Part shown: positions 5,122 through 57,788 of the stretch, piece by piece
How positions within the stretch are numbered: the first letter of the stretch is position 1
Layout: every line of letters begins with the position of its first letter
Origin: Malacoraja senta
Taxonomy: Eukaryota
Length of the DNA: 64,000 nt
Assembly: GCA_038087875.1 (NCBI GenBank)
Contig: CM075993.1
Coordinates: 8,434,001-8,498,000 of the forward strand
Direction of reading: 5' to 3'
Translations under genes and position numbers: made by a program
The notes under the pieces: generated by a model
What the model saw: only the letters and a program-made list of their open reading frames with translations
What the model was told of the DNA's origin: nothing
The model's database searches: none

Positions 5122-6593
5122 TTGCTGAGTATTTATGTACAAGCTGAGTATTTCTGCATTTATTAATTTCCTTTAAACCTTGCTTGAAATCTGCTCTCGC
5201 ATTCAATTGGAAATTTATGATAGACCTCTGTGCACGCTGAGGAACTGAGATGTGTATGTCGATGGAGATGCTGTAACCTCCAACATATCTGCTCTCCTTG
5301 GAACCTCAATTCAGCACCATCTCTTAACTAAAATGGAGGGAGCTTTGGATGTTAAATTCTCCTGTTGAGCTCAGTGAAGAAATGCAGTGGATCCTGGGGA
5401 TCAGTGCTCTTTCAGTGGTCATTCTAGTGAAGGCATCTACATTGGAATAGAGGAGAACCTGAGGACTAATTGTCCATCAGCTTGCCCTTGAAACTCTGTC
5501 ATTCTTCTTGTTTTCTGTTCCTTTCTTATACCATTACTCATTGGCGCGCAACCTCACCCCACTTGCCCTCTACTGCCAAAGCAGCTGGTGTGAGATGACT
5601 GAACTGGGATGCAGAGACAGAATACGACAAGACTCTAATAATCGAATTCACCGCAACCAAATCTAGCTAAGCACTTGACCAGCTGCTTGGATGACCATAG
5701 GAACCGAGTCTCGAGCAATCACACAGGGGGTTGGCCACATAATAGAGGAATTAGCAGCGCATTCATGGTTCCTGGGAGCTAGTTTAATGCCTCAAATCCC
5801 CCAGTAGATTATTTGCACAAACACCACTTTGAAGTTAATTTTCAACATGGCAGCATATCATTTGGATCTATTCAGTCATCAATTCAGCACACAATTCTTG
5901 AATTAGCATCACAATATCAATTTGGTAATATTTTCTACTTCTGTAAATGCTTATTGTGCATTATCATAATTAATATTGTAAATGGGTGGGGAGAGAAGAA
6001 GCAGGTATATCAACACTTTTTGTTTTTTCTTTTCTTTTTTCCGTTTTTGTCTTTTTATTTCTTTAAAGTTTTTACTTACTCACTCTTTGACTCCACTCAT
6101 TTGGTAGTTTAGGGGTTCTATTCTTACACATTCACTTTCTCTTTCACTTTCTTTCTTTCTTGCTCTTCCTCTCTTTTTCTATTTCATCTTTGCTAAAATT
6201 AAAATGGAAGCTGTACAATAAATGTATTGTCATATGCCGAGGTTTATACTATTGTACACTGCTTCTAATAAAAATATAAATTTTAATAATAAAATAAAGA
6301 AAGTGAATGTTTGCCTATTCTGTTAAATCCCTCAGTTTACTATTTGTGGGTAGCACAGGGTACACGAGGATATCAGCACCCTGTGCAACAGTCATAGAGT
6401 CATTCAGCACAGAAACTGACCTTACATCATGTCCATGCCACCCTTATTATTTGGATTCTGGGAGCACTGTATTTTGTATCCTGCTTCTGTGTTGATCTTT
6501 TTTTGCTAACCCTGTTTTGCCTGGGAGGCTGAGTTCATAGTCATAGAGTAAAACAGCACGGGAATAGTTTACTTGGCCGACCTGCCCAAGATG

Positions 6594-6776
6594 TGTAAGA
6601 AAGAACTGCAGATGCTGGTTTAAATCAAAGGTAGACACACAATGCTGGAGTAACTCAACGGGTGAGGCAGCATCTTTGAAGAGACTGAAGAAGGGTCTCG
6701 ACCCGAAACGTCACCCATTCCTTCTCTCCAGAGATGCTGCTTCACCCGCTAAGTTGCTCCAGCAATTTGTGTCCAT
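6594..6776. mobile_element. Fold-back Penelope-derived insertion with 12-bp TSD
   Basis: Inverted arms. TSD ctgcccaagatg at 6582-6593 and 6777-6788. Confidence 0.85.
6685..6712 (+). ncRNA. Minimal hammerhead ribozyme motif
   Basis: CTGAAGA-A-GGGT(CTCG)ACCC-GAAA-CGTC with intact core. Confidence 0.6.
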
Positions 6777-7202
6777 CTGCCCAAGATGCCCGATCTAAGG
6801 TAGTTGCCCATATCCCTCATACCTTTCCTATCCATGTATGTGACCAATACTGTTGTAGTATCTGCCTCTACTACCTCAGCAAGCTTGTATTCCTGGGATG
6901 GCAGGACTGACATATGATGAAAGAATGGATTGACTGGACTTGTATTGACTGGAATTTAGAAGGATGAGAAGTGATCTTATAGAAACATATAAAATTCTTA
7001 AGGGATTGAAAAATGTTCCCCATGTTGGGGGTCCAGAACCAGGGGTCACAGTTTAAGAATAAGGGGTAGGCCATTTAGGACTGAGATGGCGAAAAACTTT
7101 TTCAGCTACAGAGTTGTGAATCTGTGGAATTCTCTGCCATAGTAGGCAGTGGAGGTCAATTCACTGGATGTTTTCACGTGATAGTTAGACATAGTTAGAT
7201 AT

Positions 7203-7298
7203 CAGTCTGAAGAAGGGTCTCGACCCGAAACGTCACCCATTCCTTCTCTCCAGAGATGCTGACTGACCCGCTGAGTTACTCCAGCATTTTGTGTCTAC
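7203..7298 (+). mobile_element. Penelope-derived short unit with 9-bp TSD
   Basis: TSD gttagatat at 7194-7202 and 7299-7307. Confidence 0.85.
7207..7234 (+). ncRNA. Minimal hammerhead ribozyme motif
   Basis: ctgaagaagggtctcgacccgaaacgtc with intact core. Confidence 0.65.
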
Positions 7299-7610
7299 GT
7301 TAGATATAGCTCTTAGGGCTAACGGAATCAAGGGATATGGGGAAAAAGCAGGAACAGGGTGCTGATTCTGGATGATCAGCCATGATCATATTGAATGGCG
7401 GTGCTGGCTCGAAGGGCCGAAAGGCCTACACCTGCATCTATTTCCTATGTTTCTATCCATCAACATTCAATCAGTAAATAAGCATGAATGCCCAGAAACC
7501 GGTTCCCAGAATTAATTGGCACCGTTAATGCACTTCAGATGCGAGAAGGTCAATTATGACTCTTGCATATAGTCAGTCGATTGTCAAACCAAAGCAACCT
7601 TGTGTATTTT

Positions 7611-8283
7611 AATAATAATAATAATAATACATTTTATTTATGGGCGCCTTATACCAAAGTCTCAAGGACACCTTACAGAGTTTAACAAGTAAGAAACATA
7701 TAATCGGAGTAAAATTAATTATAAAGACATCACCAGTACACAAATTATAGACAGAATTCGATCCAAAGACACAAAAAAATAAAAATCAGAAACACAACGT
7801 GAAGAGAGAGCAGCGGCAGCTAAACCGCACCAGCGTCCACTCTCCCTTCCGACCGCCATCTTGGACACAGACTAAAATAGACACTACAAACAAAAATCAT
7901 CCCCCCACAATGGTTACCACTGTGGGGGAAGGCACAATGTCCAGTCCCCATCCCCAGTTCTCCCACAGTCAGGCCTATTGAGGCCTCCGCTATTGCCTCT
8001 ACGCCGCCGAAGCTGAAGGTGCTGGGCGGTCCCCGTCAGGAAACGGCGCCCCACGCCCGCTGGTAGGTCACGAGGACGGGTCGACGGGGCAGCCCGGAGA
8101 AAAAGCTGCCTCACCGACCAGGTAGGGACCTAGAAATAAGGTTACCCCCTTGCCCCTACATTAAAAGTCTAGTTCTCCTACAGACAGCAAACAAGACTAA
8201 CTAAAACTACAAAAAAAAAAGTGAATTAAATGGACGGCTGCTGATTAGCAGCCGTTCACCAAGATGGCTCCTCCTCCAATGTA
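7611..8283 (-). mobile_element. GC-rich non-autonomous retroelement with L2-type 3' tail
   Basis: Shares its body with 24298-25111. Tail tgtaaggtgtccttgag...ataaataaaatg(tat)n resembles the L2 end at 39333-39400. Confidence 0.7.
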
Positions 8284-8452
8284 CTGAATGACCATTAACT
8301 GCTGCGATGAGGTTTTATGGCAGTTGGTGTGTGAGATTCAGCAGTTGTTTCACAATGAGATGAGATATTACAGCCAACTTGGGGAAACTTTGCTTTCTTT
8401 CTTGGATCTGAGATGATGAAAAATACGAGTGAGGATGGGATGATTTTAGCGA

Positions 8453-9040
8453 AGATAGACATAAAATGTTGGAGTAGCTCAACGGGACAGGCAACATCTC
8501 TGGATACAAGGAATGGGTGACGTTTTAGGTCGAGACCCTTCTTCAGACTGAGAGTCAGGGGAAAGGAGACACAGATAAGGAAGGGTAAAGTGCAAAAACG
8601 AGACATGAAAAGAGATGAAGATCAAGGAAAATGTAGAATAAATCATTCTAAGCCAGGCGAAGGTGACAACAAAGCAAACGGAAATAAAATGTAACCGGGC
8701 CAGTCAGACTGGTCAGAGAATGAGGAAGTAGGAGGGATGGAGAGAGAGGGAAGTTGGAGTTGAAGTCAAGTTACCGCTGCCCAAGCGAAACATGAGGTGC
8801 TGTTCCTCCAATTTGCGCTGGGCCTCACTCTGACATTGGAAGAGCCCCAGGACAGAAAGGTCAGTGTGGGAATGGGAGGGGGAGTTAAAGTGTTTAGCAA
8901 GCGGCAGGTCAGGTATGTTTAGACGGACTGAACGGAGGTGTTCAGCAAAACTATTGCCGAGCCTGCGCTTGGTCTCGCCGATATATAGGAGTCCACACCT
9001 TGGAACAGCGGATACAGTAGATGAGGTTGGAGGGAGGTGC
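8453..9040 (-). mobile_element. Penelope-like element 3' part: GIY-YIG endonuclease remnant, 3' UTR and hammerhead repeat
   Basis: ORF 8713..9096 contains RCGLLYIGETKRRLGNSFAEHLRSV...HFNSPSH...LEEQHLMFRLG, typical of PLE GIY-YIG domains. It is contiguous with the repeat at 8453-8550. Confidence 0.88.
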
Positions 9041-10404
9041 ATGTGAATGACTCGGAGATTCTGGACAGTGAATGAAGCTTTATTTTCCACTGTCAACCAA
9101 TGTTGGCATCTAACGCTGCCGATCTAATTTCTTTCGTAGCTGCTCAGAGTAAAAGTGGAAAATATGTTTGGGATTGCAAATATATGGCTTGTGTTCAAAT
9201 GCTTTGAAGTCTATATTTTTTGGCTGTAATTTATTTTTTCCCTGTTACTTGCATGTCATCACAATTTGATCCGTCACGGATTCATGTTGTTCCAGACAAA
9301 CTTGAAAATGTTTCAGTCGGAGATGAAAGCTGCCTCTTTGCTGTTACAGTAGTAACACTGTTGGGATTCTAAAGGTGCCACTCAAAGTTGCAGCAGGAGT
9401 TGACATTTTGTTTTGAAAGCTTTTCGTACTTCCTTCACAAGAAGTGACTATCTAGCTCCATAACCCCACTTGACATCATTTTATAAAGTCCTTTTCAAAT
9501 ATCTGTCCACTTACATTTTAAGTAATTTTTGACCCTCTCGCAATAGTATGAAAGTAAAACGGATTATAATCTTACCTGGTGGGGGTGGGGGGAGCACTCC
9601 AAACTTAAGTTTAAAATCTTGTTTTTGTCATCTGGTCTTGGCTGGAGAAGTATTTTCAACGTTGATTCCCAGTTTTAGTCAGCTGCCAGGGCAGTGGATG
9701 GCTGTAAACCTCTAGCATGGCCATTGCATATGGAATCCAGCTGCAACACATGATCAAAAAAATGCGGTGTTAACGCACACAACAAGGTCATTCAGCCTGT
9801 TATATCAGTGCTGATGTGTGGCAAAGGTTCCAAATTAATCCCCCCATTCAAGCCCAATGCACAACATTTTTGTTTCTTTCTCCAGCAGTCTCGGTCTAGT
9901 TCTCATCTGAATGTTATTCCATTTCAATCCATTCCATGAATCCATTTCAATCATCCTTTCAAACAGCAATTTGCTGCGTTAAATATATAAACTTCTCAAA
10001 CTCCTCTCCTCTCTGGTAACGTTGTCAACCTGATATCTGCATTGTTCTATTTCTGGCGTTCAGCCACTGGGAACATTCTCTCTTTCTCTCTTTCTTTAAC
10101 CCATAATTATTTTAGACTTCTTTCAAATCTTCTCTTCATCTCAGCTTTAATACAAACCCCAGACTCTGACCACATAATCAAAACCTGTCTGTCCTAGTAC
10201 CATTCTAGTAGATCTCTTACGCAACCTTTAAGTCCTGAACATCTGTCGTAAATTAAACACAATACCCAGGTCTTACTTGTTGAGTTCAACTTGTTTATTT
10301 TTGTACTTCTGCCTTTGATTAATGATCCCCTTGTTAATCATCCTAAGGATTACAGTTTTTTCTTTTTGACAACCTTCACAACTTGTCCTACCACCTTGAT
10401 CCTT

Positions 10405-11800: not shown

Positions 11801-12493
11801 AGGCAATGAAACTCCTTAAATCATTTGGTACATTTGCCTTTAACTTCAGATTTGATGTCTCTAGACCCCAGACTTGGAAAGTTGCTGGTAGGTGTGGGCA
11901 AAGGGCTGGTTTACTGAGGAAGATCATCTACATTGCAGCCGCTGATTGATTGGTAATGAAAGGTGTAGAGTGAGAGAAGCATGAAACAGAGAGAAATCTT
12001 TAACCACCTCGGCAGCCTGTGGGCTGTTTAACTAAATGCCCTATCATCTTCTACCACATTCCAAAGAGAAGTTCAAGAAAATTAAGTTGAAAGAATTGTT
12101 AAATAAACACTATCGCTTTACACCAGACCATGTTCATTCTTCAGAAGGGAGTGGATTGGACTGTTGTGCAATTACTAGATCATTGTTTGAGATGTGTTGG
12201 GTGTAACCATGTTGAAAGGCACCAGCACACAACCTCCCACTGTGTTACATGATGAGAGCACAGCTCGCTGTCACTGATGGGCCCTCGGGGCAGCTGAGCT
12301 GAGCTGGGTTCAGGGGGATACCTGGCGATTTCATGGACAGAGCAGGGGTTGACTCCGTTGAAATCTTTTGCTGTTTGATTTGAAAAAGTGGAATTGAAAG
12401 GAAAACAAAAGATGTAAAAGAAAGGTGGGGAAGGGTCTGTGGAGAATGGAAAGCAGGGAGATCTTCCCTTCGTAGGTAATGAAAGGTAAAAGA

Positions 12494-12699
12494 TACACAC
12501 AAAATGCCAGAGTAACTCAGTGGGAAAGGCAGCATCTCTGGAGAAAGGGGCTTTCCCCTGACTCTCAGTCTGAAGAAGGGTCTCAACCTGAAACGTCACC
12601 CATTCCTTCTCTCCAGAGATGCTGCCTGTCCCGCGGAGTTACTCCAGCATTTTGTGTCTCTCTTTGGTTTAAACCAGCATCTGCAGTTCCTTCCTACAC
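12494..12699. mobile_element. Fold-back Penelope-derived insertion with 15-bp TSD
   Basis: TSD atgaaag(g/a)taaaaga at 12479-12493 and 12700-12714. Hammerhead core at 12570-12597. Confidence 0.85.
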
Positions 12700-14033
12700 A
12701 TGAAAGATAAAAGAATGCATTCAGAAAGAATGTAGAAAAATATTTAATGTAGACGTCCTCAACCCCAGTCAAGTCTGTGGCATTTCTTTTTGAAGGGACT
12801 CGGGAGCAGAATTAAGTTCTGAGGGCTTTTGAAGTGCATTGACAGCAACTCAAAGAAAATTACTCTTGACCCTGTGCGTTGCACTCTGACAGAAGACTAC
12901 ACATCATGCCTCTATTATACAAATGTCTGTGTCTGCGAGAGCTATCATGAACAGAATGTAGTTTGACCTTGCATCATATAGAGCAGGGAATTGAGCACGT
13001 TCCCTTGAGAGGAATCTTTGTGAACTCTTAATAAGTGCCCTTTTCTTGATTGCTGATTGTTTTTGGAAAAAAAAGGAAATTAAAATTCCACGTCACATGT
13101 GCTGTGAAAGACTGGTGAAGGGAACATTGGCTCTATATACTGCAAACAGCAGAGCAACAGTTTGGGTCGTTCACGATTCTGGGTCCAAAAAAATAGAAGG
13201 TAAGATTTTCAGAAAAGCACGATATACTCTGAACTGTTTGTTCATCAGACGGGGCATCTGAGATGATGCGACAGTAAAGAACACTTTGTGATCATGAAGG
13301 CGAGGGTGTGGCAGAGTGGATTTGAGGGAGAATAACAGAGGGTAGAATTTTATAACCACATTAGGGAAGCTCCTCAGTCAGTGTGGCAGTGTGTAGAGAT
13401 CATGCTGTTTACTTTGGCCACAATTTGTTGCAGTGGAAATGATGGGAGATCAAGTTAACTCTGATTCCTATTGTCAATACAGATGGTTGTCATAGACTAG
13501 ACTGAGGTTTCCATCCCTTCTCAGAAGTGTGCACTTTGTCACACTGAATGTCACACAAAAAAAAATGTAATTCAAATTTCAATTAATCTAGTATTTGATG
13601 CTATTCGATCTCACTGTTCTGGTCTAGGATTTATTCACTAATGGGGCAGTAGATTTAAAACCAATCAATGCAGACCATGGGGCCACAAAGATTCAACACA
13701 GATAAGATGGAAACGAGCTCTGGGGCTGAACGTCACTGGATGTTAGGTGAATCGAGGCCAAGCAAGGAAAGGGAGTGGCCGTCTTAAGGGATTTTCAGGA
13801 ATGTTCATTTCCAGGCACTGCGATCCCCGCCAGGCTCTGCCTTAAAACGAGACAATCAGAGGGAGGAAACAAGACAGATAGGATGGCACATGGATGCTCA
13901 ATTCTCAGTTGATAGGGCAGTGATTCATTCCCCAGCCGCAGATCAGTCTGAATCATTAAAGCTGGAAGTGCATCTCTTATTGCTCAGCTGGCCTGATTTA
14001 ATCCAATATGCTATCAGCCTCGTCTTCCCCATA

Positions 14034-16359: not shown

Positions 16360-16860
16360 CTGCTATACAAGTCCTGTCTAAATGACACTTCAGCATAGTG
16401 TTTGTGTTTAATTCCACCACTTCCTCTGGCAGTGCGTTCCAGATATCAACTCGTCTTTGTAAAAAATAACTTCCCCTCGCATCCCCCTTGGACTCCATTT
16501 TCTCACCATAGACCTTGGCCCTCTTGTTTTGGATAACCCTATCATGACAAAAAAGATATTGCCTGTCTACTGTATCTATACCTCTTGTAATTTGATATAC
16601 TTCAGTCGGATCATCCCTCAACCATCACTCCATGGAAAACAAACCCAGCTATCCAATGTCTCTCCATGACTGCAGTCCTCCCATGCGCGCAACTTCCTGG
16701 TAAACTCTGCGCAACTCTCTCTAGCACCACTGCATCCTTCTGATTGTGTGATGACCAGAACTAAACCCAATAGTCCAAATGTTGTCTAACAAATGTTTCG
16801 TGAAGTTACAATAACATCTCAGCTTTTATATTCTATGTCCTGACTTATGAAGGCAAGCAT
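16360..16860 (-). mobile_element. Old CR1 LINE fragment
   Basis: RDDPTEVYQITRGID...QRRVDIWNALPEEVVE. Confidence 0.7.
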
Positions 16861-17054
16861 GATATATACACAAAAATAAACCTGCTGAGTTACTCCAGCT
16901 TTATGTCTACGGTTTAAACCAACATTTGCAGTTCCTTCCTACATAAGCATGATATCTGCCGCCTTTATCACACTATCCATCCACACCATTTTCTTTGAAC
17001 TACAGACTAAAACCCCTATGTTCATCACAAACCAATTATTATGTATGTCGTATC

Positions 17055-18060
17055 CATAGAATCATACAATGTGGAAACAGGCTCTTCGGTACAACACCGA
17101 CCATCATGTCCCATCTACATCACTCCCACCTGCCTGAGTTTGGCCCATATCCCTCTAAACCTGTCGTATCCATGTACCTGTCCAAATGTTTCTTAAACGT
17201 TGCAACAGTACCTTTCTCAACTACCGCCTCTGGCATACACCCACCACCCTTTGTGTGAAGAAGTTACCCCTCGGGTTCCTATTAAATCTTTCCCCCCCTC
17301 ATCTTAAACCTATGTCCTCTGGTTCTTGATTTCCCCACTCTGGGCAAGAGAATCTGTGCGTCTACCCAATCTATCAGATCACCCTTCATCCCAGGAACAG
17401 AGTCATGGCCTGCTCAAACCCTCCCTATAGCTCAGGCCCTCGTTCAATCCTCGTAAATCTTCTCGGCGGCCTTTCCAGCTTGACAACGTTGTTCCTATAA
17501 CATGGTACCAAGAACTGAACACAATATTCTAAATGCGACCTCACCAACGTCTTGTGTAACTGCAACATGCCCTCCCAACTTCCATGTGTAGGAAAGAACT
17601 GCAAATGCTGGTTTAAATCGAAGGTAGACACAAAATGCTGGAGTAACTCAGCAAGACAGGCAGTATTTCTGAAGAAGGGTCTCGACCCGAAACGGCATCC
17701 ATTCCTTTTCTCCAGAGATGCTGCCTGTCCCGCTGAGTAACTCCAGCATTTTGTGTCTACCTCTCAACTTCTATACTCAATACTCTGACTGATGAAGGCC
17801 AATGTGCCGAAAGCCTTTTTGACGTCCCAATCTACATGTGGTGCCACTTTCAATGAACTATGTACCTGTATTCCTCGATCACTCTGCTCTGCAACACACC
17901 CCATTCGCTGTGTAGGTTCTGCCCACTAATGGCACGAAATGCAACGCCTCACATTTCTCTGTATTAAATTCCGTCAGCTATTCCTCAGCACACCTGCCCA
18001 AACCGACCAAGATCCTGCTGCAAATTTTGACAACGATATTCACTAGCTCCAATACCACCC
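17055..18060 (-). mobile_element. CR1 LINE 3' fragment interrupted by a fold-back PLE unit
   Basis: LQLHKTLVRSHLEYCVQF motif; CR1 tail near 17055-17100. Confidence 0.8.
17585..17759. mobile_element. Fold-back Penelope-derived insertion
   Basis: Imperfect TSD cctcccaacttcca / cctctcaacttcta at 17571-17584 and 17760-17773. Confidence 0.8.
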
Positions 18061-18169
18061 ACCCACCTATCTGTGCACTTGTCAGGATTAATTTCCATCT
18101 GCCAACACTTTGTTCAACTGGATTATTATAAGTGGGAAGGAACACTGAGTGGATTACGGGAGATTGGAA

Positions 18170-18750
18170 CTGTCAGTGTTCATGCCATTGGGCTGTAGGC
18201 TACCTCAGTGGAATGCGAGTGCTGTTGCTCTGGCTTATATTTGGCTCGTTGTAGCAGTGGAGAAGGCTGAGAAAATGGAAAGGGGTTGAAATGATTTGCC
18301 ACCAGAAGCTCAAGATGGCACCATTTCACCCAAGGATTTCCGTATGTTCGCTTTTTCCAGCCCACTCCTTTTATGCCTATCATCCCTCCGTTATGTGGTT
18401 CCGGACTCTGTTTTGTGCACTTATCTCCCCCCCCCCCCCCCCCAATTCCCCTCCCCCCCCCCGCCATTCAGCTCCATGTGCCTTTTTTCCCTCCTTTTCT
18501 TGTGTTTTCCTCCTGTCACCTACCAGTCTCATTCAACACTATCTGGCTACATATGCCCATCATTTCCTGCACACTCCACCCTCCTCCATTTAGTTCCAAC
18601 TATCACCTACCAGACCTTGTCTCACCCCTTCCTCTCACTTCTATATACTGGCAATCTTCCCTTTACACTCTGTGCTGAAGTCTTGACCCAAAACATCAAC
18701 CATTCCTTTGCTTCCACGGGTGCTGCTTGACCCACTGACTTCTTCCAGCT
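18170..18750. mobile_element. Old Penelope-like remnant with inversion
   Basis: Minus-strand VANHFN...EQQH remnant at 18170-18310; plus-strand pyrimidine-rich UTR and decayed terminal repeat to 18750. Confidence 0.55.
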
Positions 18751-19888: not shown

Positions 19889-19907
19889 CTGTGGAGGAAG
19901 AAACAGC

Positions 19908-20123
19908 AGGTAGACACAAAGCTGGAGTAACTCAGCAGGACAGGCAGCAGCTCTGGAGAGAAGGAATGGGTGACGTTTTGGGTCAAACCCCTTCTTCAGA
20001 CCTTCTCGATACGAAACGTCACCCATTCCCTCTCTCCAGCTATGCTGCCTGTCCTGTTGTGTAACTCCAGTTTTTTGTGTCTATCTTCGGTTTGAACCAG
20101 CATCTGAAGTTCCTTCCTAAACA
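19908..20123. mobile_element. Fold-back Penelope-derived insertion with 14-bp TSD
   Basis: TSD gaggaagaaacagc at 19894-19907 and 20124-20137. Confidence 0.88.
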
Positions 20124-27065: not shown

Positions 27066-27908
<843 letters not shown>

Positions 27909-36899: not shown

Positions 36900-39400
36900 C
36901 GTGCGATGCATAACATCCTGTGGAAGATAACCCCTTAAACAAAGGTCACATCCTTGACCTGGTCTGCTCCACAAATCAACCGGTACTCGACCTCCATCCA
37001 TGCCTCTTCCCCCTCTCTGATCATAAGCTCATACGGTTCACCATCCCTTCTCCGACACCTCGCCCCCGCTTCCTCCGAGAAATCACCTTCCGTAATCTAA
37101 AATCCATCGACCCTCACCATCTCTCTGACCTGCTCTCCACCACTCTCCCCCTGGACTCAACCCACATCTCACCTGATGATCTCACAAACCATCTCAATTC
37201 CACCTTGTCTACCTCCCTTAACACTCTGGCTCCCCTCAAAACAAGAACCGTAACTTTTAATAGATCTTCACCCTGGTACACACCTGCACTTCGTAAGCTG
37301 AAACAGATTGGTCGCCGACTTGAACGACTCATAAAGAAATCACCTCTCACAGTCCACCATGAAGCTTACAAACTCCACCTCACAGCCTATAAAGATGCCC
37401 TCATTGCTGCTAAATTTGCATACCTCTCCTCCATATTCACTGACCCCTGCCTAAACCACAGAACCCTCTTCTCCACAGTGTGCAATCTCCTCAAGCCTCG
37501 AGCCAACACTCTCCCAACCTCCACTCCGGATCTCTGCAACTCATTCCTCCACTTTTTTGCTGACAAAATCAGCACCATCTATCAATCCCTATCCCCTGTA
37601 CCCGACTCCCCAGCATCTACTCCACCACCTACCAAGGCCCCTCCTTTCAACATCTCCGCTGATCTCCATATCTCTCCCCCTCACTGCTTCCTCTCCCAGT
37701 TTGACCCGGTCACCCCTACTGAAATCTCCAAACTCATCAGCTCTTCCAAACCCACTACCTGCTCCCTTGACCCTCTCCCCACTACCCTGCTGAAGTCCTG
37801 CCTCCCTGCTCTCTGCCCCTACCTCACTAATCTTTTCAACTCCTCATTGTCCCAAGGAATTGTCCCCTCTGCTTTCAAAATTGCTGCTGTCACACCAATC
37901 TTAAAGAAACCTGGTCTTGATCCCTCCTCTCTCATTAACTACCGCCCTATCTCAAACCTCCCCTTTCTTTCAAAAACCCTGGAGCGTATCGTCGCGTCAC
38001 AACTTCATTCCCACCTCCTCGCGTATAACCTATTCGAACCCCTCCAATCTGGCTTTCGCCCCCTCCATAGCACAGAAACTGCTCTCCTCAAAGTCCTCAA
38101 TGACCTCCTTACCTCTGCTGACACTGGCTCCCTCAATATCCTCATCCTCCTCGACCTGAGTGCAGCCTTCGATACCGTCAACCATAACATCCTGCTCACC
38201 AGACTTAGGGACCTTGGCATTGAAGGTTCTACACTCAGCTGGCTCCGTTCCTACCTTTCCAACCGATCCCACTTCATCTCTCTCCATAACCACACCTCTG
38301 CCACAGCCACTGTCACTCAAGGCGTTCCCCAAGGCTCCGTTCTTGGTCCCCTCCTCTTCATCATCTACATCCTCCCCCTTGGTCATATACTCCGTCACTT
38401 CAACCTGGACTTCCACTGCTATGCTGATGACACCCAGATCTATCTCAGCACCAAGTCCCCCCACCACCCCCTCTCTCCCATATCAACTCCTGCCTATCAG
38501 CCATCAAATCTTGGATGCAACTCAACTTCCTTAAATTAAACAGTAGCAAAACAGAATTTCTCCTCATTGGCTCCAAATCAACACTCACTAAAATTAACAA
38601 CCCCACTCTCACTATTGACGGCACCACTGTCTCCCCATTTCCTCAGGCACGCAACCTTGGCGTGATCTTTGACTCAACCCTCTCCCTTGAGCCTTACATC
38701 CGCCATGTTGCCAAAACATCATTTTTTTCACCTCCGCAACATTGCCAAAATCAGATCCTCTCTCACACCCCCCGCTGCTGAAAGACTTCCATGCCTTCAT
38801 CTCCTCCCGACTGGACTACTGTAACTCTCTTCTCTTTGGAATCAATTCCAGCAGCATCAACCGACTCCAACTGGTCCAGAATGCAGCCGCTCGACTCATT
38901 GCCCACACCAAATCCTGGCACCACATCACCCCAGTTCTCAAAAGAACTTCACTGGCTTCCCATTTCCCACCGGATCACCTACAAAACCCTGGTCCTCACC
39001 TACAAAGCCCTCAACAACTTGGCCCCCCCTTAACTCACTGACCTCCTCTCCCCCTACCAACCCTCACGGTCCCTCAGATCCACATCAGCTGGTCTCCTCT
39101 CCACTCCGAAATCAAACCTCTGCACTTTTGGAGGCAGAGCCTTCTCCAGGGCAGCTCCCAGGCTCTGGAATTCCCTCCCACAACTGGTCCGAAATTCTGA
39201 GTCCCTCGCCATCTTTCAGTCCCGCCTCAAGACCCATCTCTTCACCTCTGTATACCCTTAGTCCCATGTTGCCCTCCCCTTTGCATCTCTGTCTTACTGC
39301 TCTATTTTGTTTTGTTTATTCATGACTCTCAATGTAAAGCGACTTTGAGTCCTGAAAAGCGCTATATAAATAAAATCTATTATTATTATTATTATTATTA
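36900..39400 (+). mobile_element. 5'-truncated L2-clade LINE (end of APE endonuclease plus RT; frameshifted after about 38470)
   Basis: GHILDLV..SDH, NYRPISNLPFLSK, QSGFR..HSTETAL, LDLSAAFDTV, GVPQGSVLGP and YADD motifs. 3' tgtaaagcgactttgag...(tat)n. TSD ttaaacagtgc at 36889-36899 and 39398-39408. Confidence 0.92.
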
Positions 39401-39676
39401 AACAGTGCGGCCCTCGTTCATAAGATCTCTGACTAGTCCCTCAATGATGGGTCAGTGGGATTCAAATCCTTGGACGCACAAGAGCCTGCAGATGTTGGAA
39501 TTATGAACAAAAAAACTAAATTAACCCCTTCTTTCGTGGATCTGTCTTTCACTTGCTGGTTCTTGCCCTATCCCTTCCCCCCCACCACTTTCTAAATACT
39601 ATCTACCCTCTACTCCATCAATCTGAAGAAGAGTCTCGGCCCAAAATGATGTCTGTCCATTCCCCTCCACAGAGTG

Positions 39677-39845
39677 TGTTGGAAGGAACTGCAGATGCTG
39701 GTTTACACCGAAGATAGAAACTAAATGCTGGAGTAGCTCAGCTGGACAGGCAACATTTTCTGGAGAGAAGGAATGGATGACCTGAAATGTCACCCATTCC
39801 TTCTCTCCAGAGACGCTGCCTGAGTTACTCCAGCATTTTATGTCT
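39677..39845. mobile_element. Fold-back Penelope-derived insertion with 14-bp TSD, nested in an older PLE repeat
   Basis: TSD ccctccacagagtg at 39663-39676 and 39846-39859. Confidence 0.85.
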
Positions 39846-40556
39846 CCCTCCACAGAGTGATTGACCCACTGAGTTCCTCCACTAGCTTTCCTTGTTGAAA
39901 ATGCTTGGTCCAAGAGGCAAACAAAAATCAGCAAAGAGCTTAGTTGTCTGCCAAGTAAGAAATACTGAGCAAGCCAAGGTGCTGTATAAATAATGATTCA
40001 GCACATCGTGCTGGGGATTGGCCTTTAAAGTGCTTTCTTGAATTGTCACCTCTACATTTTAACTGACTTCCTCAATTCACTCGTGTTCTGAGGCTATACT
40101 TGCTTGAGTTTTGGGGGCCTATGATACAGCCTTGATGGGGAAAAGGGTCGATGAGACTTTTTAATCAGAACAATTCCAAAGAGAGATCTATGATCCAAGC
40201 AATAAATCTGTGATGCGTAACTGAATTTGGCAAATTCATTGTGGAAGATAGGCCAGTGACAAAGCTTGTAGCAGAGGGAGTGAAGCAGGTTTAGCCCAGC
40301 TAGCTGAAGGCTGTGATCTGGAACTTGTTTCTCGTTGACTATAGAGTTTTTCAGCCCCAGGCTGAACGGGTTCTGAACCTGGATCTGTATGGATAAACAG
40401 AGGGACTAACACTGTGAAACTCTGCCAAATGCCTAAGGGTGGATTCAAAGGCTAAAAGTCTTACCAATGGAGATTGTTGATCGTTCCCTGGGAGTAATAA
40501 TCTTAATCTGTTCAGCTCTTAAATCTCCCACCTTCTCTGTGACAGTGAGCCTAGAG

Positions 40557-43313: not shown

Positions 43314-43969
43314 CGTGTGCGTGTGCTTGCATGCGTGCAGTTTGTGTGCGTGCCTGCAGTGGGTACCTACTCTCCCGATTCCCAATCTGAAGGATCCCAA
43401 CCCAAAACGTTGTCCATCCAAGTTCACCAGAGATGCTGCCTAAACCGTTGTTATTCCAGCACTTTACGTTTTACTCAGGATTGCAGCATCTGCAGTTCTT
43501 TGTGTTACCAGTGCTTGATCTTGTTATCTTTTATGCCTTGATGATTCATGTACCCATGTTATGGTGCCTCCACCACCCCTCAGGCCTATTGTAACTTCTC
43601 CTTTACCCTCTCAAAGGCTCATCTTTTTGACCAGAGATATTTGGTATCTTCAATCCGAATGTTTTCTTACAAGGATCGGTGTTACATTTTTAACGTGCGT
43701 AAGCAGGGTTACCATGTTATTTCTCGGCTTTGCTATCTCACATTTATGTCGATGTAACTCTTGCTGGCATTCTGCATTCAATTTTCTGCCTGTATTTTAT
43801 TGTGAGGGAGGTGCTTTATTGCTGGAAGCCCCCTGAAGACTAAAGTCATTAGAAAGATGTTAATGATTGAGTCAGAGCATCTTTTATTCCTGTAAACCGA
43901 TGAATTTCGGCATTGCTTGCTCAGCCTTAGCTCATAAGACAACATCTTCTTCTGAGAAATCAACCGTAA

Positions 43970-43971
<2 letters not shown>

Positions 43972-44065
<94 letters not shown>

Positions 44066-44087
44066 GCGCTCTCTCTCTCTCGTGCTC

Positions 44088-44124
<37 letters not shown>
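43972..44124. repeat. (CT)n microsatellite
   Basis: Directly visible. Confidence 0.97.
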
Positions 44125-44670
44125 GTCCTACCTCCTCCCCCAATGCACGAATATCATTAATATAAGGAGGCCAAAGTGGTCACAGCACTGGCTCTTTCTC
44201 AGAAAGACCTAATTTTATATTTCATCCCTTCCCAATTACTTTTGCGATTTGCTTTCCCACTTCAGCTTTGCATCATTGGCATATTTGGCTACAATAGACT
44301 TGGGCTCCATCATTAAAGTCATTGGAACAGATTGGAAACAGTTGAGGCTTCATCACTGATTCCTTAGGCACCCTCTAGTTTTCAACTTGGAAAAATGACC
44401 CGTTTATCCCAATGTTTTGTTAGGTAACTGATCTGATATGCCTGCTAATACATCTCACTGCCATACATTCTTACCTTTGCAGTAACATATTATGCAGTAC
44501 CTCTTTAAATACATTTTGGAAATCCAAATGCATTGCATCTGGTTTCTCCGTTATCCACCCGCTTGTTACATTCTCAATAAAACAAGATAAATTTGTAGTA
44601 CTGTTGATTTTGTTGTTTTGACTGCTGGATTGAATTGTGATTTCCTAAATGTTGGTGGCCCATGTCATTT

Positions 44671-45118
44671 TGTTTAGTTAGAGATACAATGTGGAAACAG
44701 GCCCTTCGACCCACTGAGTCCACGCAGACCAGCGATCCACACACACTAACACTATCTTGCACACACTAGGGACAATTTACAATTTTACCAAAGCCAATTA
44801 ATCTACAAACCTGTGCAGGAGAGAACTGCTGATGCTGGTTTAAATCGAAGATAGGTACAAAATGCTGCAGTAACTCAGCGGGACAGGCAGCATCTCTGGA
44901 GAGAAGGAATGGGTGACGGGGTCTCGACCCGAAACGTCACCCATTCCTAATCTACAAACCTGTCATCTTTGGAGTGTGGATGGAAACCGGAACACCTGGA
45001 GAAAACCATGCAGGTCACGGGGAGAATGTACAAACTCTGTACAGGCAGCACCCATGATGGAACCCAGGTCTCTGGCTTTGTTATGCAGCAACTCTGCCGC
45101 TGCACCATCGTGCCGCCC
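44671..45118 (-). mobile_element. HE1/V-SINE-like SINE split by a PLE unit
   Basis: SINE is continuous once 44815-44963 is removed. Confidence 0.85.
44815..44947. mobile_element. Penelope-derived insertion with short inversion and 16-bp TSD
   Basis: TSD taatctacaaacctgt at 44799-44814 and 44948-44963. Confidence 0.88.
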
Positions 45119-48465: not shown

Positions 48466-49784
48466 TTGCTTGGTCAATGCTTTAAAAATTGATTGAGGGA
48501 GTGAACCGGTTGGTTCCCGAGTTTGAATCGGCTACTTCAACCTGAGTGGGGGACTGGTGAAGAAAGTTCTTATTGGTGATACATTTCGCTAACAAACAGT
48601 GGGACAAAATATATATCTATCCACCTCCAGCCAATTCAGCAAGGATCGAGAGAGCTAACAGTGCCTCTGCTTAAAGTCTACACCAAAAGATTCAACAGCA
48701 TTCCCTCATTGCTGCCTGCAAGTATCAGCCCGTCTTTTCCCCACTTCCACCTCCCTGTATCCCTCCCCCAACTCCATCTGTCTGAAGAAGGGTCCCGACC
48801 CACGATACCACCTGTCCATTCCTTCCATAAATGCGGAGTTACTCCAGTACTTTTGTGTTTTGGTCGAGATTCCAGCAACTGCAGTTCCTTGTGTGTCCGT
48901 ATTAATGACACAAGTTGCACAAGTAGAAGGAATTCTTTGTGGACCAGCTGTTGTTTTATTAGAGGTCAAGGCCATGAATGGTTTTGTTGGAGTGTAAGAG
49001 AGGTTGTTTATAGTGGGAGCAAGGTCGATAGCCAGAGCTTCTTGGATTGAACATTATTGACAAAAGATTCAACGTAATTGCGATCAGTGGTACGTTACCT
49101 GAATAACGGCAGCAGATTCAGCAGGAACTTTTAAATGGGAATTGGGTAAACAGGTGAAAGGGGAAAATAAATGAGATGGTTATGAAAGAGTAGGAGAGTG
49201 AGATTTAATTACTTTGACTTGGACTTGGCAGAGGCATTCAGAACTGAAAGGCTTCCATCATTGCTGTATGATTCTATACTCTGATAATCCTGGCCTTTTG
49301 CATTACATCCACGGCTCTGTAATTGAGCGGCAGTTTTGGGGTTTAGCCACATGAGCTAACTGCTGTCCTCCCGCTAGTTCTTACTTATCCGCCAGTTTAG
49401 TTCACCAAGTACGGAGTGCAGGAGTAACTCAGCGGGTCAGGCAGTGCCTGGGGAGGGAATGGACTAGCGCGTTTCCGGTCAGGGACCGTCCAGACTGAAG
49501 AAAGGTCCCGGCTAGAAACATTCCCTCCCCAGATGCTGCCTGATGTGCTGAGTTCCTCCAGCACTTTGTTTTGTTCAAGGCTCTCTTTCCTTTCCACCTT
49601 ATTTTGCTACCTTTGTCAATATTTGTTACCCAAATGATATTTAACAATGATTCTAACAGCCAGACTTTCTTGACTCTCATCGCCAGCAGAGAAACTAAAG
49701 TGGAAAATAAACTACAAACAAAATATTTGTTTTGGTTTGCTCATAAATGTGTCCTCATCAGTGCCCCATTGTTCTGCTCTCGCT

Positions 49785-50492
49785 TCCACTCCCCCCAGAT
49801 GCCACACACAAACTGGAGGAACAACATCTCATATTCCGCTTGGGTAGCTCACAACCTAGAACATTGAATTCTCCACTTTTCAATAACTCCAATAACCTCT
49901 CTCTTCCCTGAGCCTCGCGGACGCGCGCCTATTTCTCCCCTCCTCTTCCACCTACATTCCTTTCTCCATCACAATTTGCAACTTTTTGCAATCCTTTTGT
50001 ATCACACCTTTTCATCTGTAACCCTTGTCCATCATCTGCCTATAATAGATAATAATAATAATAATAATAATAGATAATAGACAATAGATGCAGGAGTAGG
50101 CTATTCGGCCCTTCGAGCCAGCACAACCATTCACTGTGATCATGGCTGATCATTCACAATCAGTACCCCGTTCCTGCCTTCTCCCCATATCTCTTGACTC
50201 CGCTATCTTTAAGAGCTCTATCTAACTCTCTTGAAAGCATCCAGAGAATCGGCCTCCACTGCCTTCTGAGGCAGAGAATAACCACCCCACACCTGTATCA
50301 ACCTATTACCTGCCAGACATTCTCCTGCCCCTCCTCTCTTCCAGCTTCCCCCACCCCCCACAAATAGCCTGACGAAGGGACCAAACCAAAAACATTACCT
50401 ATCCATGCCCTCCAGAGATGCTGCCTGATCCGCTGAGTTAATCCAGCACTTTGTGTCATTTTCTAAACCAGAATCTGCAGTTCCTTGCATCT
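49785..50492 (+). mobile_element. Older Penelope-like 3' fragment, interrupted by a CR1 tail (about 50045-50280, -)
   Basis: aaactggaggaacaacatctcatattccgcttgggtagc (KLEEQHLIFRLGS); decayed hammerhead near 50369; tail ccagaatctgcagttccttg. Confidence 0.75.
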
Positions 50493-51600: not shown

Positions 51601-51886
51601 GTCACCATGGCGATAGTGGTTGCAAATGCTCCATAACAGACACTATCACCACAGCCCTACAGAGCTATATATCTCCTGGTGTCATTGGCTGGTCTCTGCT
51701 TTCAGTTGTGGGACATGTAGTAGACCGTACTTTCAGAATCAGCTTATTTAGTCATCTTAGATGTGAAAATGGACACAAAATGGTGGAGTAGATCAGCAGG
51801 TCAAGCAGCATCTCTGGAGAAAAGGATTAGGGTGACCAGAAACGCCACCCATTCCTTTTCTCCAGAGATGCTGCCTGACCCGCTCG

Positions 51887-52400
51887 GTTTGAGCCCCATA
51901 TCTGAGGACGGATGTGCTGGCTCTGGAGATGGTCCAGAGGAGGTTAACAAGAATGATTCCAATTATGAGTGGGTTGGCATATGATGAGCGCTCGACAGCA
52001 CTGGGCCTCTACTCGCTGGAGTTTAGGTGGTTGAGAGGGGACATCATTGAAACTTACAGAATAATGAAAGGCATAGATAGAGTGGATGTGGAAAGGATGT
52101 TTCCACTGGTGGGAGAGTCTAGAACCAGAGGTCATAATCTCAGAATTAAAGGGCGCTCTTTTAGAAAGGAGGGAGGAGGAACTCTTTTAGTCAGAGGGTA
52201 GTTCATCTGTGGAACTCATTGCCACAGAGGGCTGTGTTGGCCAAGTCAGTGGAGATAGACAAATTCTTGATTAGAACGGGTGTCAAGGGTTATGGAGAGA
52301 AGGCAGGAAAATGAGATTAGGAGGCAGAGATCAGACATGATTGAATGACGGAGTAGACTCGATGGGCCGAATGGCCTAATTCTACTCCAATAACTTGTGA
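51887..52400 (+). mobile_element. CR1 LINE 3' fragment inserted in a fold-back PLE unit (about 51768-52467)
   Basis: LEMVQRRLTRMIP...LGLYSLEFR. The PLE arm breaks at gacccgct and resumes gagttattccagcattttg. Confidence 0.85.
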
Positions 52401-52620
52401 ACGCGAGTTATTCCAGCATTTTGTGTTTATCTTTGGTGTAAACCGGCATCTGCAGTTCCATCCCAAATATCTTGGGTGTGATCCCGCTTTGCTAAAGTAT
52501 TGATAGCTGCATATCTGTTACCCTGCACATGTGGAAGGATTCCAACTGCCAAAATAATCGGTAGCTCAGGCAGAGTTTGAATCTTGTCAGCAAAAGCAGC
52601 TGAAATAAACAAACAGGAGT

Positions 52621-53119: not shown

Positions 53120-53216
53120 AGGTAGACAAAAATGCTGGAGGAACTCAGCGGGTGAGGCAGCATCTATGGAGCGAGGGAATAGGTGACGTTTCGGGTCGAG
53201 GCCCTTCTTCAGACTG
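53120..53216 (-). mobile_element. Penelope-derived short unit with 9-bp TSD
   Basis: TSD ttttattga at 53111-53119 and 53217-53225. Hammerhead core intact on the minus strand (53185-53212). Confidence 0.85.
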
Positions 53217-53732
53217 TTTTATTGATGTTGGTTCAGATGAAATAATCGGCTACGACTTTGGAAAGAACATCCTTTGTTGCTTACAGCAAAGTGATGCCGT
53301 GATAGGGTGTTTTAACATTTGCTGAAAAGGGCAAACTGCTGCAGGAACTCAGCGGTTCAAGCAGCATCGGCGGAGACAAAGGAATCGTTGACGTTTCGGG
53401 TCATGGTCCTGGTGCATGGTCTCGACCTGCAATGTTAACAATCCCTTGGCCTCCGCAGATGCTGCTTGACCCGTTGAGTTCCAACAGAGGTTTGTTTTTT
53501 GTTCCAGATCTGCCCTCTCTGATGCTCCGTGCTACAAAGGGTGAGTGGAGCCCGCAGCTGTGGGCCCAGGCAACTGTGGACGAGTGGCTCGTTCATGGCC
53601 TTCCCCGCTTCCTCCACCTCGCATGTCAAACATGTGAAATTTGGAAGGAGCTTTCCCTCTCTTAACACTTCCTGATCATCAGCTCCTCTTGAGTTGTTGG
53701 CTTTGGGAGAATGCTCTCTTTGGGGATGTTGC

Positions 53733-55107
53733 CTAGAGTCAGTTATTAAAGATGGGATAGCAGCACATTTGGAAAGTGGTGAAATCATTGGACAAAGTCA
53801 GCATGGATTTACGAAAGGTAAATCATGTCTGACGAATCTTATAGAATTTTTCGAGGATGTAACTAGTAGCGTGGATAGGGGAGAACCAGTGGATGTGGTG
53901 TATCTGGACTTCCAGAAGGCTTTCGACAAGGTCCCACATAAGAGATTAGTATACAAACTTAAAGCACATGGCATTGGGGGTTCAGTATTGATGTGGATAG
54001 AGAACTGGCTGGCAAACAGGAAGCAAAGAGTAGGAGTAAACGGGTCCTTTTCACAATGGCAGGCAGTGACTAGTGGGGTACTGCAAGGCTCAGTGCTGGG
54101 ACCCCAGCTATTTACAATATATATTAATGATCTGGATGAGGGAATTGCAGGCAATATCTCCAAGTTTGCGGATGACACTAAGCTGGGGGGCAGTGTTAGC
54201 TGTGAGGAGGATGCTAGGAGACTGCAAGGTGACTTGGATAGGCTGGGTGAGTGGGCAAATGTTTGGCAGATGCAGTATAATGTGGATAAATGTGAGGTTA
54301 TCCATTTTGGTGGCAAAAACAGGAAAGCAGACTATTATCTAAATGGTGACCGACTATGAAAAGGGGAGATGCAGCGAGACCTGGGTGTCATGGTGCACCA
54401 GTCATTGAAAGTAGGCATGCAGGTGCAGCAAGCAGTGAAGAAAGCGAATGGTATGTTAGCTTTCATAGCAAAAGGATTTGAGTATAGGAGCAGGGAGGTT
54501 CTACTGCAGTTGTACAGGGTCTTGGTGAGACCACACCTGGAGTATTGCGTACAGTTTTGGTCTCCAAATCTGAGGAAGGACATTATTGCCATAGAGGGAG
54601 TGCAGAGAAGGTTCACCAGACTGATTCCTGGGATGTCAGGACTGTCTTATGAAGAAAGACTGGATAGACTTGGTTTATACTCTCTAGAATTTAGGAGATT
54701 GAGAGGGGATCTTATAGAAACTTACAAAATTCTTAAGGGGTTGGACAGGCTAGATGCAGGAAGATTGCTCCCGATGTTGGGGAAGTCCAGGACAAGGGGT
54801 CACAGCTTAAGGATAAGGGGGAAATCCTTTAAAACCGAGTTGAGAAGAACTTTTTTCACACAGAGAGTGGTGAATCTCTGGAACTCTCTGCCACAGAGGG
54901 TAGTCGAGGCCAGTTCATTGGCTATATTTAAGAGGGAGTTAGATGTGGCCCTTGTGGCTAAAGGGATCAGAGGGTATGGAGAGAAGGCAGGTACGGGATA
55001 CTGAGTTGGATGATCAGCCATGATCATATTGAATGGCGGTGCAGGCTCGAAGGGCCGAATGGCCTACTCCTGCACCTAATTTCTATGTTTCTATGTTTCT
55101 ATGTTTC
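53733..55107 (+). mobile_element. Young 5'-truncated CR1-clade LINE (RT frame with one in-frame stop)
   Basis: SQHGFTKGKSCLTNL, YLDFQKAFDKVPH, QGSVLGP, KFADD and RPHLEYCVQFW motifs. ORFs 53694..54359 and 54369..55004 share a frame. (ttctatgt)n tail. Confidence 0.95.
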
Positions 55108-55552: not shown

Positions 55553-56044
55553 CATCTGAACTACAAAGACTAGACGGATTGAATGGCTGGGACTAAAGCA
55601 CTGATCTGAGATGACGTATATATTGCAGTTGTAGTATAGTTATTATTAGAACTATAATTAACTTATTTCAATTACATATGTTGAATTTGAAGAATATGAG
55701 ATGATAAATGTGGGGAATTGGTGTGAAGCATTTATGCAGGTTAATAGCTTCAGCATTATGAATGATAAAGTTACATGGATCTGGCTTGGACCTTTATCAT
55801 TTTACATTGAATCATAGAAGCAGTCCATTAAGACGTCTTACTAGATAGAGGATATAACAAGTCGGACACCCAAGAGATGGTATTTAATGTACATGTCTTC
55901 CTCTGAAATATTCAGTACGCAGCATAGTAACTGGACTCATTAAGAGAGATGCCACCTTTAAGGTTCATATGGCAGTGAGAATATTAACCTTTGGCTTAAT
56001 GACATACAAGGGCTTGACCCTAACCTAGGTTTGGTCCTTGTGGA

Positions 56045-56134
56045 TAGACACAAAGTGCTGGAGTAACTCAGCAGGTCAGGCAGTATCTCTGAGGGAAAAG
56101 GATAGGTGACGTTTCGGGTCGAGCTCCTTCAGGC
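56045..56134 (-). mobile_element. Penelope-derived short unit with 13-bp TSD
   Basis: TSD tggtccttgtgga at 56032-56044 and 56135-56147. Confidence 0.85.
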
Positions 56135-56297
56135 TGGTCCTTGTGGAGTTGTACTTCAAATGATTTAAAAGCTTAAGAATGTAAAAGAAATGTACCAAAA
56201 TACTGCTGGATCGGAGCTGAGAAACTACTTTTCTATGGAAAGGTGAAGGGTCGGATTATTTTCTTCACAGCTGCGAAAGTTAAAGGAAAGATTTAAT

Positions 56298-56516
56298 GGT
56301 AGACAAAAATGCTGGAGAAACTCAGCGGGTGAGGCAGCATCTATGGAGCGAAGGAAATAGGCGACGTTTCGGGTCGAGATCCTTCTTCAGACTAATGTGG
56401 GGGTGGGGAGGGCGGCCTATTCCCTTCGCTCCATAGATGCTGCTGCACCCGCTGAGTTTCTCCAGCATTTTTGTCTACCTTCGATTTTCCAGCATCTGCA
56501 GTTCCTTCTTAAACAT
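56298..56516. mobile_element. Fold-back Penelope-derived insertion with 12-bp TSD
   Basis: TSD gaaagatttaat at 56286-56297 and 56517-56528. Hammerhead core on the minus strand at 56363-56390. Confidence 0.88.
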
Positions 56517-57788
56517 GAAAGATTTAATAGTGATGTTCAACATTGATAGTTTTAAGGAGTAAATAATTCTCTCAACTGAGGATAAACTGTTTCTACAGGT
56601 GGTCGTAGATTTAAGCTTATTGACAAAGGCATCAGTGAGGAAATAGCAGACATTTTCAATGCAACAAGTAGTGATGTAGAAAGCACTGTTTGAAAGCATT
56701 GTGGAAGTAGATCCAATAACATTCCAAAAGAAGTTGGTTCAGGCAGCATCTCTGGAGAAAAAAAAGGTGTCTTTTCGAGTTGTGACCCTTTTCAAATTCC
56801 ATACAGACAAGCCGATCCGAAACGTCACCTATCCTTTTTTCTCCCGAGATGTTGCCTGACCCACTTAGTTAGTCACTCCAGCACTTTGTGTCTATCTTTG
56901 GTATAAACCTGCATCTGCACTTTTTTTATATTCCAAAGGAACCGTGCTAAATAATATGGAAATGTTTACAAATTTGTGGAGAAAGTGTGGAGGAATGCCA
57001 GGGTTAAAAAAAGCCTCTACAAATATGATGGTCTGAATGACCTTCCGCACTGACACCTTCCTTCTATGAGCTTGGTGTGGCTGGAAACCAAACCTGTTTG
57101 AATATTTTTTATTTGCATGAGGCATCTTTGGAGAACTAATGAATGTAGGGTGTAGCTGAGGACTAATTCTGAACAGGAATTTGTTGCATTGAATTGCAAA
57201 GTATAGTGAGTGCCCTGCAGCTAAAATGCAATGTATGTAACTTCTGGTATTTTTTGCTGGTCTTTGACTTGCTTGCACTCCTCATAACAGGCATGATTTG
57301 GTTATGATAATATCCCTGTGAGACTGAATAAGGTTCAGCAGAGTTTCAGGAGGGAACTGATGGAGATTTATGAGTGGGCCGAACTGAAACTGTGTTTTGG
57401 TTTTTGCAGTGATGATTTCCGATTGCTTGCAGTATTTGGAATGTAGTTCTCTGACTGGTTGGGTTCCTCAGGTTCAGGCATGTTCCAGGATTTCCTTACA
57501 AAATGCCCTTAAATGGTAACACTCTCGAGTCGGTGGCAAACAAAACCTTTGAACCACACACAGTTTACAGAAAACAATGACCAGGCAAGCTGATGTACTT
57601 GTGAAATAAAGACAAATCTGCTCATATAGTGCTCAGAATTAGAAAGAGATTTTGATCAAGTGTAATGGGAAAGAAAAATCTTTGTTTGCATAATTTGTAA
57701 ACCATTGAGAGAATTGTTCTTAAGTTGTCAGGAGATGCACATTATTAATTGATGAAGGTCAAATTTATGTGTTTAAAGTTCAAGGGAG

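Follow-up and report, generated by a model that had tools for sequence, protein, structure and literature searches.

One-sided long ends in fold-back insertions of a putative Penelope-like element in Malacoraja senta

A 64,000-nucleotide window of Malacoraja senta DNA (GenBank assembly GCA_038087875.1, contig CM075993.1, positions 8,434,001 to 8,498,000 of the forward strand) contains short copies of a repeat that we assign to the 3′ end of a Penelope-like element. Some of these copies are fold-backs, in which two arms of the repeat lie head to head. In total, 16 candidate two-arm loci of this kind were found in the window, and 11 of them were bounded by a target site duplication (TSD) of 8–16 nt. 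All 11 carried exactly one long end. In nine of these fold-backs (6594, 12494, 16866, 17585, 19908, 30755, 39677, 51768, and 56298), the long end was paired with a short one, and in the other two it was paired with an internal stop (44815 at c37 and 56736 near c63–70). Pairs of the short/short or long/long type were looked for, and none was found among the 11. The pattern is real and statistically supported, and for the most part it is a feature already described for Penelope elements.

Base-level work was carried out on the 64-kb window alone. A profile built from eight window slices matched 66 stretches at E ≤10 in the window, and the 60 stretches at E ≤0.01 were put on one coordinate system, numbered so that c1 falls on the first hammerhead-core base. 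Arms were gathered by this profile search and not by eye. TSDs were located by a scripted search, junctions were placed at the optimal split of each insert, and the element ends were compared against the TSD. Arms stopping at the nearer of two fixed positions are called short-ended, and those running on through the tail long-ended. In the TSD null, a score of at least 8 was reached in 2.8% of 393 random windows. The main count comprises the 11 TSD-bounded fold-backs, and five loci with no convincing TSD (24125, 32745, 46293, 53332, and 49411) were left out.

The short ends lay at c88–c96 (15 ends) and the long ends at c128–c133 (11 ends). The tail between them measured about 38 nt (about 36 nt in one subfamily, which has a 2-nt gap). 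This is close to the 35–37 nt given in the preliminary description of this DNA. That description had listed nine one-short-one-long fold-backs. Eight of the nine proved to be both short/long and TSD-bounded; the ninth, 24125, dropped out, with an interrupted right arm and no TSD. Seven of the named fold-backs (6594, 12494, 17585, 19908, 30755, 39677, and 56298) had TSDs of 9–15 nt by script. For 51768, a 13-nt TSD was read by eye past a later insertion of about 520 bp (about 51885–52404), where the script found 5 nt. Furthermore, all five uninverted copies named earlier do end at the short position and have TSDs of 9–17 nt. Shuffling of the end labels gave P = 2.6e-4 for 10 fold-backs plus 5 uninverted copies, P = 5.5e-3 for fold-backs only, and P = 9e-4 for a conservative set in which 49411 was entered as short/short and 60474 as uninverted long. 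TSD length varied from 8 to 17 nt across the scored insertions. The insertions at 7203, 33233, and 34814 were checked by comparison with further copies of the host repeat that have an empty site, and empty sites were likewise found for 44815. For 6594, 17585, 19908, and 60474, this comparison turned up no copy of the host repeat.

The internal junctions differed at every fold-back locus. Junction overlap was 0–5 nt, with none in six of the nine short/long copies and 3–5 nt in 16866, 39677, and 51768. In five of the nine (6594, 17585, 19908, 39677, and 56298), the short arm extended 5–56 nt further 5′ than the long arm. Since the tail is present only on the long arm, neither arm can have been copied as DNA from its partner, and this speaks against a simple snap-back of target-primed cDNA. 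Snap-back from a long first strand fits 12494, 16866, and 51768, and 30755 is nearly symmetric. The 3′ untranslated region (UTR) was reached by either arm class (the long arm in 12494, the short arm in 56298). Arms of one insertion differed by 5–35% and shared subfamily variants more often than shuffled arm pairs did (P = 0.002, 8 insertions). Moreover, microhomology between element end and TSD was 0–6 nt, which fits priming. The simplest account of all nine short/long copies would be separate priming, in which each of the two target strands starts a cDNA of its own on element RNA.

We consider it somewhat probable that the insertions are dead, 5′-truncated copies for which both target strands primed reverse transcription at two start sites. 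The enzyme nicks both target strands 8–17 nt apart, as the TSD shows. Reverse transcription would begin at either of two fixed internal positions on the RNA, separated by about 38 nt, which we equate with the start sites reported in PMC11167929. If a single nick primes on the RNA, the product would be an uninverted copy. When the second nick also primes, two antisense cDNAs would grow toward each other and stop at variable points, and repair would join them into a head-to-head hairpin with both 3′ ends outward. In the last and weakest step, both primers may sit on one RNA or enzyme dimer, the short site being taken by the first cDNA and the long site being left. The more specific proposal, that one enzyme dimer primes both nicked strands on a single RNA and that the second primer is pushed to the long site once the first cDNA occupies the short one, is offered tentatively. 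If true, it would explain the inverted pseudo-long terminal repeats (pLTRs), the one-sided tail, and the lack of symmetric pairs, and neither self-priming nor endonuclease trimming would be needed.

Several observations weigh against priming of both strands at two sites. The earlier proposal of two defined priming points on opposite strands holds as far as the two fixed 3′ ends go, whereas one site per strand per event is extrapolated from the only 9–11 loci that test the pairing. The non-long arm ends at neither fixed site in two of the 11 TSD-bounded fold-backs, and the near-perfect palindromic centre of 30755 suits snap-back. One of the five candidates lacking a TSD, 49411, looks short/short, with a TSD score of 6 that is no better than chance (null 23%). 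The variants shared between arms are subfamily markers, so that one RNA and two RNAs from the same source are not told apart by them. In addition, PMC11167929, in the part considered here, finds no start-site difference between the strands, and inverted copies are not discussed in its main text. Lastly, the site used by a lone arm is not always the short one: among 23 unpaired arms, 13 were short, 8 were long, and 2 lay in between. A TSD at P ≤0.05 was found for 7 of the 13 short unpaired arms versus 1 of the 8 long ones. Six of the eight long unpaired arms come from an older subfamily that has decayed further, so they may have lost a partner or their TSD. With 8 of 23 unpaired arms long and 5 of 16 fold-back candidates lacking a TSD, short/long pairing is not confirmed as a strict rule.

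Among other features of the unpaired arms, the long end of the older subfamily mostly closes with a motif resembling that of the short end. The long-ended arm at 60472–60614 sits in a long interspersed nuclear element (LINE) fragment, and its filler of about 13 nt may be a tiny inverted arm. One partial tandem was found, at 1133–1274.

Self-priming followed by endonuclease resolution offers a different route, in which cDNA or antisense RNA folds back into an inverted dimer and uneven trimming leaves one tail. It would account for the palindromic centre of 30755 and the 3–5 nt overlaps noted above, and it predicts that both arms come from one subfamily, as observed; endonuclease-mediated resolution is given as the origin of the tail in the cited part of PMC8557442, and palindromic junctions are read as self-priming in that of PMC3846280. 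If the first strand is target-primed, however, the arm reaching further 5′ must contain the other, which fails in five of the nine copies, and overlap is absent from six of nine junctions. Self-priming would be viable only if trimming preceded the joining of both ends to the target, and later in vitro work, as far as cited from PMC11167929, links the tail to two start sites instead. We regard this route as unlikely.

An improbable account in our judgment, also, is twin priming on one transcript with two pLTRs (a partial tandem), the arms being drawn from the 3′ and 5′ pLTR, or on two RNAs held by one dimer. Penelope-like elements are transcribed from tandem arrangements according to the cited part of PMC11167929; the arms here overlap in sequence and share their subfamily, and the geometry of 44815 is that of an internal second primer. 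Both pLTRs would carry the short site, so the absence of short/short pairs is left unexplained, and either arm class can enter the 3′ UTR. Chance or reader selection, with ends drawn independently from two hot spots, is very unlikely: the sample is small, 5 of 16 candidates were dropped for a missing TSD, and genomes or assemblies may tend to lose palindromes that are long and symmetric, yet the arms were collected by profile search and the permutation P values run from 3e-4 to 6e-3. Copying as a unit by a miniature inverted-repeat transposable element (MITE) or another DNA transposon with terminal inverted repeats, which hairpin shape, small size, TSDs, and very high copy number would suggest, is refuted here, since no two junctions are alike, as the earlier attribution of the hairpins to retrotransposition led one to expect when identical breakpoints were checked for, and since TSD length varies, the ends are unequal, and the repeat is joined to endonuclease coding DNA.

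The two ends were further examined by comparing the reference arm 12553–12740 with contigs from four public runs, each of a different organism. Every one of the three large runs yielded 279,000–306,000 matching contigs and the small run 30,000, figures that are not copy numbers, and the loose ends and joints given for these runs are the best supported, not full counts. In all four runs, the top 3′ loose ends among those listed were 12659 (short) and 12700–12701 (long). The reference arm has private changes at the two bases that directly follow 12659, and contig cover collapses past 12701. As the same two 3′ ends recur in runs from four organisms, the ends are family-wide. The flank consensus beyond both ends was AT-rich and weak. 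The short–long joints recorded on opposite strands are tail-to-tail; we take them to join neighboring insertions rather than the two ends of one, and they were therefore not counted as evidence of pairing. Among the best 15 of 811 joints, 8 were tail-to-tail short–long and none was short–short or long–long, either because near-diagonal joints were filtered or because neighboring insertions are also paired. Five scans for exact patterns, covering metagenome, genome, and viral contigs, found no locus. The listed holders of the repeat included no RNA data, and run X21 is probably DNA.

The 5′ limits were also clustered. About 15 of the 26 copies that reach c1 break no more than 5 nt upstream of the hammerhead core (for example 7203, 33233, 53212, 23390, and 36842). 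This breakpoint (12565–12568) was among the top listed 5′ loose ends in all four runs and has a pyrimidine tract with a terminal AG in front of it. The position may correspond to the RNA 5′ end or to a splice acceptor; in Penelope of Drosophila virilis, an intron ends at hammerhead helix I (PMC4209133). A second cluster at c22–c33 (12494, 30755, 39677, 44815, 51768, and 56298) brackets the predicted hammerhead cut after c28 and was not among the top listed loose ends of the four runs. Some templates may have been self-cleaved RNA. Single-sequence RNA folds around the two 3′ ends did not outperform shuffled sequences (z −0.6 to 0.1), and RNAalifold with 17 arms gave no pairs. An 8-bp stem between tail and pLTR was 88% paired with covariation not above shuffles, and it was not used.

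The identity of the element was assessed from the longer copies. Upstream of the repeat at 34814 and 8444, a pyrimidine-rich UTR is followed by coding DNA, and endonuclease fragments at 8776–9000 and 34815–35066 continue into the repeat. Neither fragment had a Pfam match. Both align at 65–70% identity with the C-terminal end of P0001, which its source labels a Leucoraja erinacea protein; this would suggest a skate-like host. The GIY-YIG match of P0001 is itself sub-threshold (E 0.0013), as is that of P0046; P0018 is 50% identical over the endonuclease. Reverse transcriptase is reached by no window copy. In P0018, which has no Pfam match, what appear to be reverse transcriptase-like and thumb motifs were seen by eye. 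A CX2-5CxxC linker between reverse transcriptase and endonuclease is given in the cited part of PMC8557442 as a feature of Neptune and Nematis. This linker is present in the homologues P0001, P0018, and P0046, and the window copies are truncated before it; the element is probably of the Neptune type (or Nematis).

A strict minimal type I hammerhead descriptor matched six copies and none in all 20 base shuffles. The motif has an extra base before stem II and a palindromic stem III, features given in PMC4209133, and an Rfam search gave no hit at the gathering score. The pLTR thus carries a minimal type I hammerhead motif with predicted cleavage. Traits of endonuclease-bearing (EN+) Penelope-like elements were also present, namely 5′ truncation, an inverted copy, variable TSDs, and an optional 30–40 bp tail. 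Endonuclease coding DNA joined to the repeat and the hammerhead identifies it, at the level of sequence, as the 3′ end of a canonical EN+ GIY-YIG Penelope-like element, in line with what had been recognized earlier. The top protein matches, P0002 and P0003, were set aside, P0002 as a repeat without the matched stretch.

Coordinates are given in Table 1. Regarding individual fold-backs, 39677 sits within an older copy of the same family (39623–39881). The arms of 44815 overlap by 12 nt, its plus arm stops at neither fixed site, and its geometry is near that of ordinary twin priming. A possible remainder of the right arm of 24125 lies at 25098–25180 and ends near c104; the intervening insertion (24298–25097) is GC-rich and begins with a short AAT repeat.

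Table 1. Positions of fold-back, uninverted, and unpaired copies in the window. Arm limits are in c coordinates.
Feature	Position	Strand	Arms, ends, and content	TSD
Fold-back	6594–6776		Long arm c39–c129/131 minus (6594–6684); short arm c1–c92/94 plus (6685–6776)	6582–6593 / 6777–6788
Fold-back	12494–12699		Short arm c33–c91 minus; long arm c−16 to c130 plus (12553–12699)	12479–12493 / 12700–12714, 1 mismatch
Fold-back, newly found	16866–16944		Short arm of ~10 nt; long arm c57/60–c130	16855–16865 / 16945–16955
Fold-back 17585	17583–17759		Long arm c48–c131+ minus; short arm c0–c91/94 plus	17571–17582 / 17760–17771, 1 mismatch
Fold-back	19908–20123		Short arm c−2 to c94 minus; long arm c12–c131 plus	19894–19907 / 20124–20137
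Fold-back 24125, cannot be scored	24124–24297		Long arm minus; right arm cut at c41 by ~800-bp insertion	None found
Fold-back 30755	30752–30931		Subfamily B in both arms; short arm from c22; long arm from c23	30743–30751 / 30932–30940
Fold-back	39677–39845		Long arm from c24–29 minus; short arm from c16–21 plus	39663–39676 / 39846–39859
Fold-back, exception, newly found	44815–44947		Long arm c25–c128/131 minus; arm c9–c37 plus	44799–44814 / 44948–44963 (16 nt)
Fold-back 51768	51767–52468		Short arm from c26–29 minus; long arm split by later insertion	51754–51766 / 52469–52481, 2 mismatches
Fold-back	56298–56516		Subfamily B in both arms; short arm c−26 to c93 minus; long arm c30–c131 plus	56286–56297 / 56517–56528
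Older fold-back 56736, newly found	56729–56929		Arm ending near c63–70 minus; long arm plus	56721–56728 / 56930–56937 (8 nt, weak)
Uninverted solo copy	7203–7298	+	Short end; intact hammerhead core at 7207	9 nt
Uninverted solo copy	33233–33321	+	Short end; 6-nt microhomology into TSD	17 nt
Uninverted 5′-truncated copy	34814–35260	+	GIY-YIG endonuclease C-terminus (one frameshift), 3′ UTR, pLTR, short end	34801–34813 / 35261–35273
Uninverted solo copy	53120–53212	−	Short end	13 nt, 1 mismatch
Uninverted solo copy	56045–56134	−	Short end	13 nt
Longer 5′-truncated copy	8444–9060	−	Endonuclease C-terminus (8776–9000), 3′ UTR, pLTR; 3′ end between c96 and c107	None found
Unpaired arm 60474	60472–60601	−	Long end; ~13 nt filler before TSD on 5′ side	Candidate, 10 nt, 1 mismatch, P about 0.02
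Older-subfamily long unpaired arms	800–896, 31654–31700, 36127–36253, 43389–43506, 48782–48896, 50369–50490		Long end	None

Further decayed endonuclease C-terminal fragments were seen at 245–376 (minus), 18160–18282 (minus), 49798–49916 (plus), and, by eye, 61041–61100 (plus). The database proteins P0001, P0004, and P0005 combine a Penelope endonuclease C-terminus with unrelated domains (DUF4518, a G-protein-coupled receptor, and a LINE reverse transcriptase), and these fusions are probably gene-model artefacts from inserted copies. Long open frames at 36914–38536 (minus, 541 codons), 2975–4285 (minus, 437 codons), and 53676–55001 (plus) look by eye like LINE reverse transcriptases. Long CT-type microsatellite tracts lie at 27056–27894 and 43970–44144.

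In twin priming of L1, the second target strand primes on the RNA, giving a 5′ inversion inside one TSD. The two arms are adjacent, non-overlapping parts of the RNA, and the internal primer site is variable. In contrast, the arms here overlap almost wholly in the nine short/long copies and neither of the two sites varies; of all the fold-backs, 44815 alone comes near the L1 form. The phrase "twin-priming-like" used earlier is therefore a loose fit, since the arms copy the same stretch. No title or abstract linking Penelope to twin priming was found.

Much of the remainder, including the "programmed" integration proposed at the outset, is already in print. The cited part of PMC8557442 describes inverted 5′-truncated copies and a 30–40 bp tail in EN+ Penelope-like elements and calls the origin of the inverted repeats undefined; in that of PMC3846280, a single member of the inverted pLTR pair bears the tail, and self-priming is proposed. 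For PAc, a Poseidon element of Anolis carolinensis studied in vitro, PMC11167929 reports, in the part used here, two internal start sites, one on either side of the tail; both target strands are cut and extended, the targets are AT-rich, and the enzyme is predicted to dimerise. In these sources, then, a one-sided tail and two start sites with extension on both strands are already known, and the mechanism proposed earlier is plausible and mostly follows from published biochemistry. Our literature search found no statement of a one-short-one-long rule, which older papers on Drosophila virilis Penelope may describe. The structure itself is ordinary for Penelope-like elements, and such hairpins should not be annotated as MITEs. 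Being abundant, with insertions of less than 250 bp and readable TSDs, the family could allow competing models to be tested on thousands of events in one assembly.

Canonical EN+ insertions, as portrayed in the cited parts of PMC8557442 and PMC3846280, have the one-sided tail in common with those described here, whereas nearly all copies here are 80–220 bp and one long end was counted in 11 of 11 fold-backs. The two start sites of PAc match the two ends found here, and its AT-rich targets have a counterpart in the weakly AT-rich flanks. PAc belongs to a different clade (Poseidon), whereas the homologues here carry the Neptune/Nematis Cys linker, and the main text of PMC11167929, where cited, ties the two sites neither to inverted copies nor to one site per strand. 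Non-LTR retrozymes, according to the consulted part of their description (10.64898/2026.07.22.740005), are short, non-coding, and Penelope pLTR-derived with a type I hammerhead, as here. Retrozymes are head-to-tail tandems, however, whereas the copies in this window are solo or head-to-head, and some are joined to endonuclease coding DNA.

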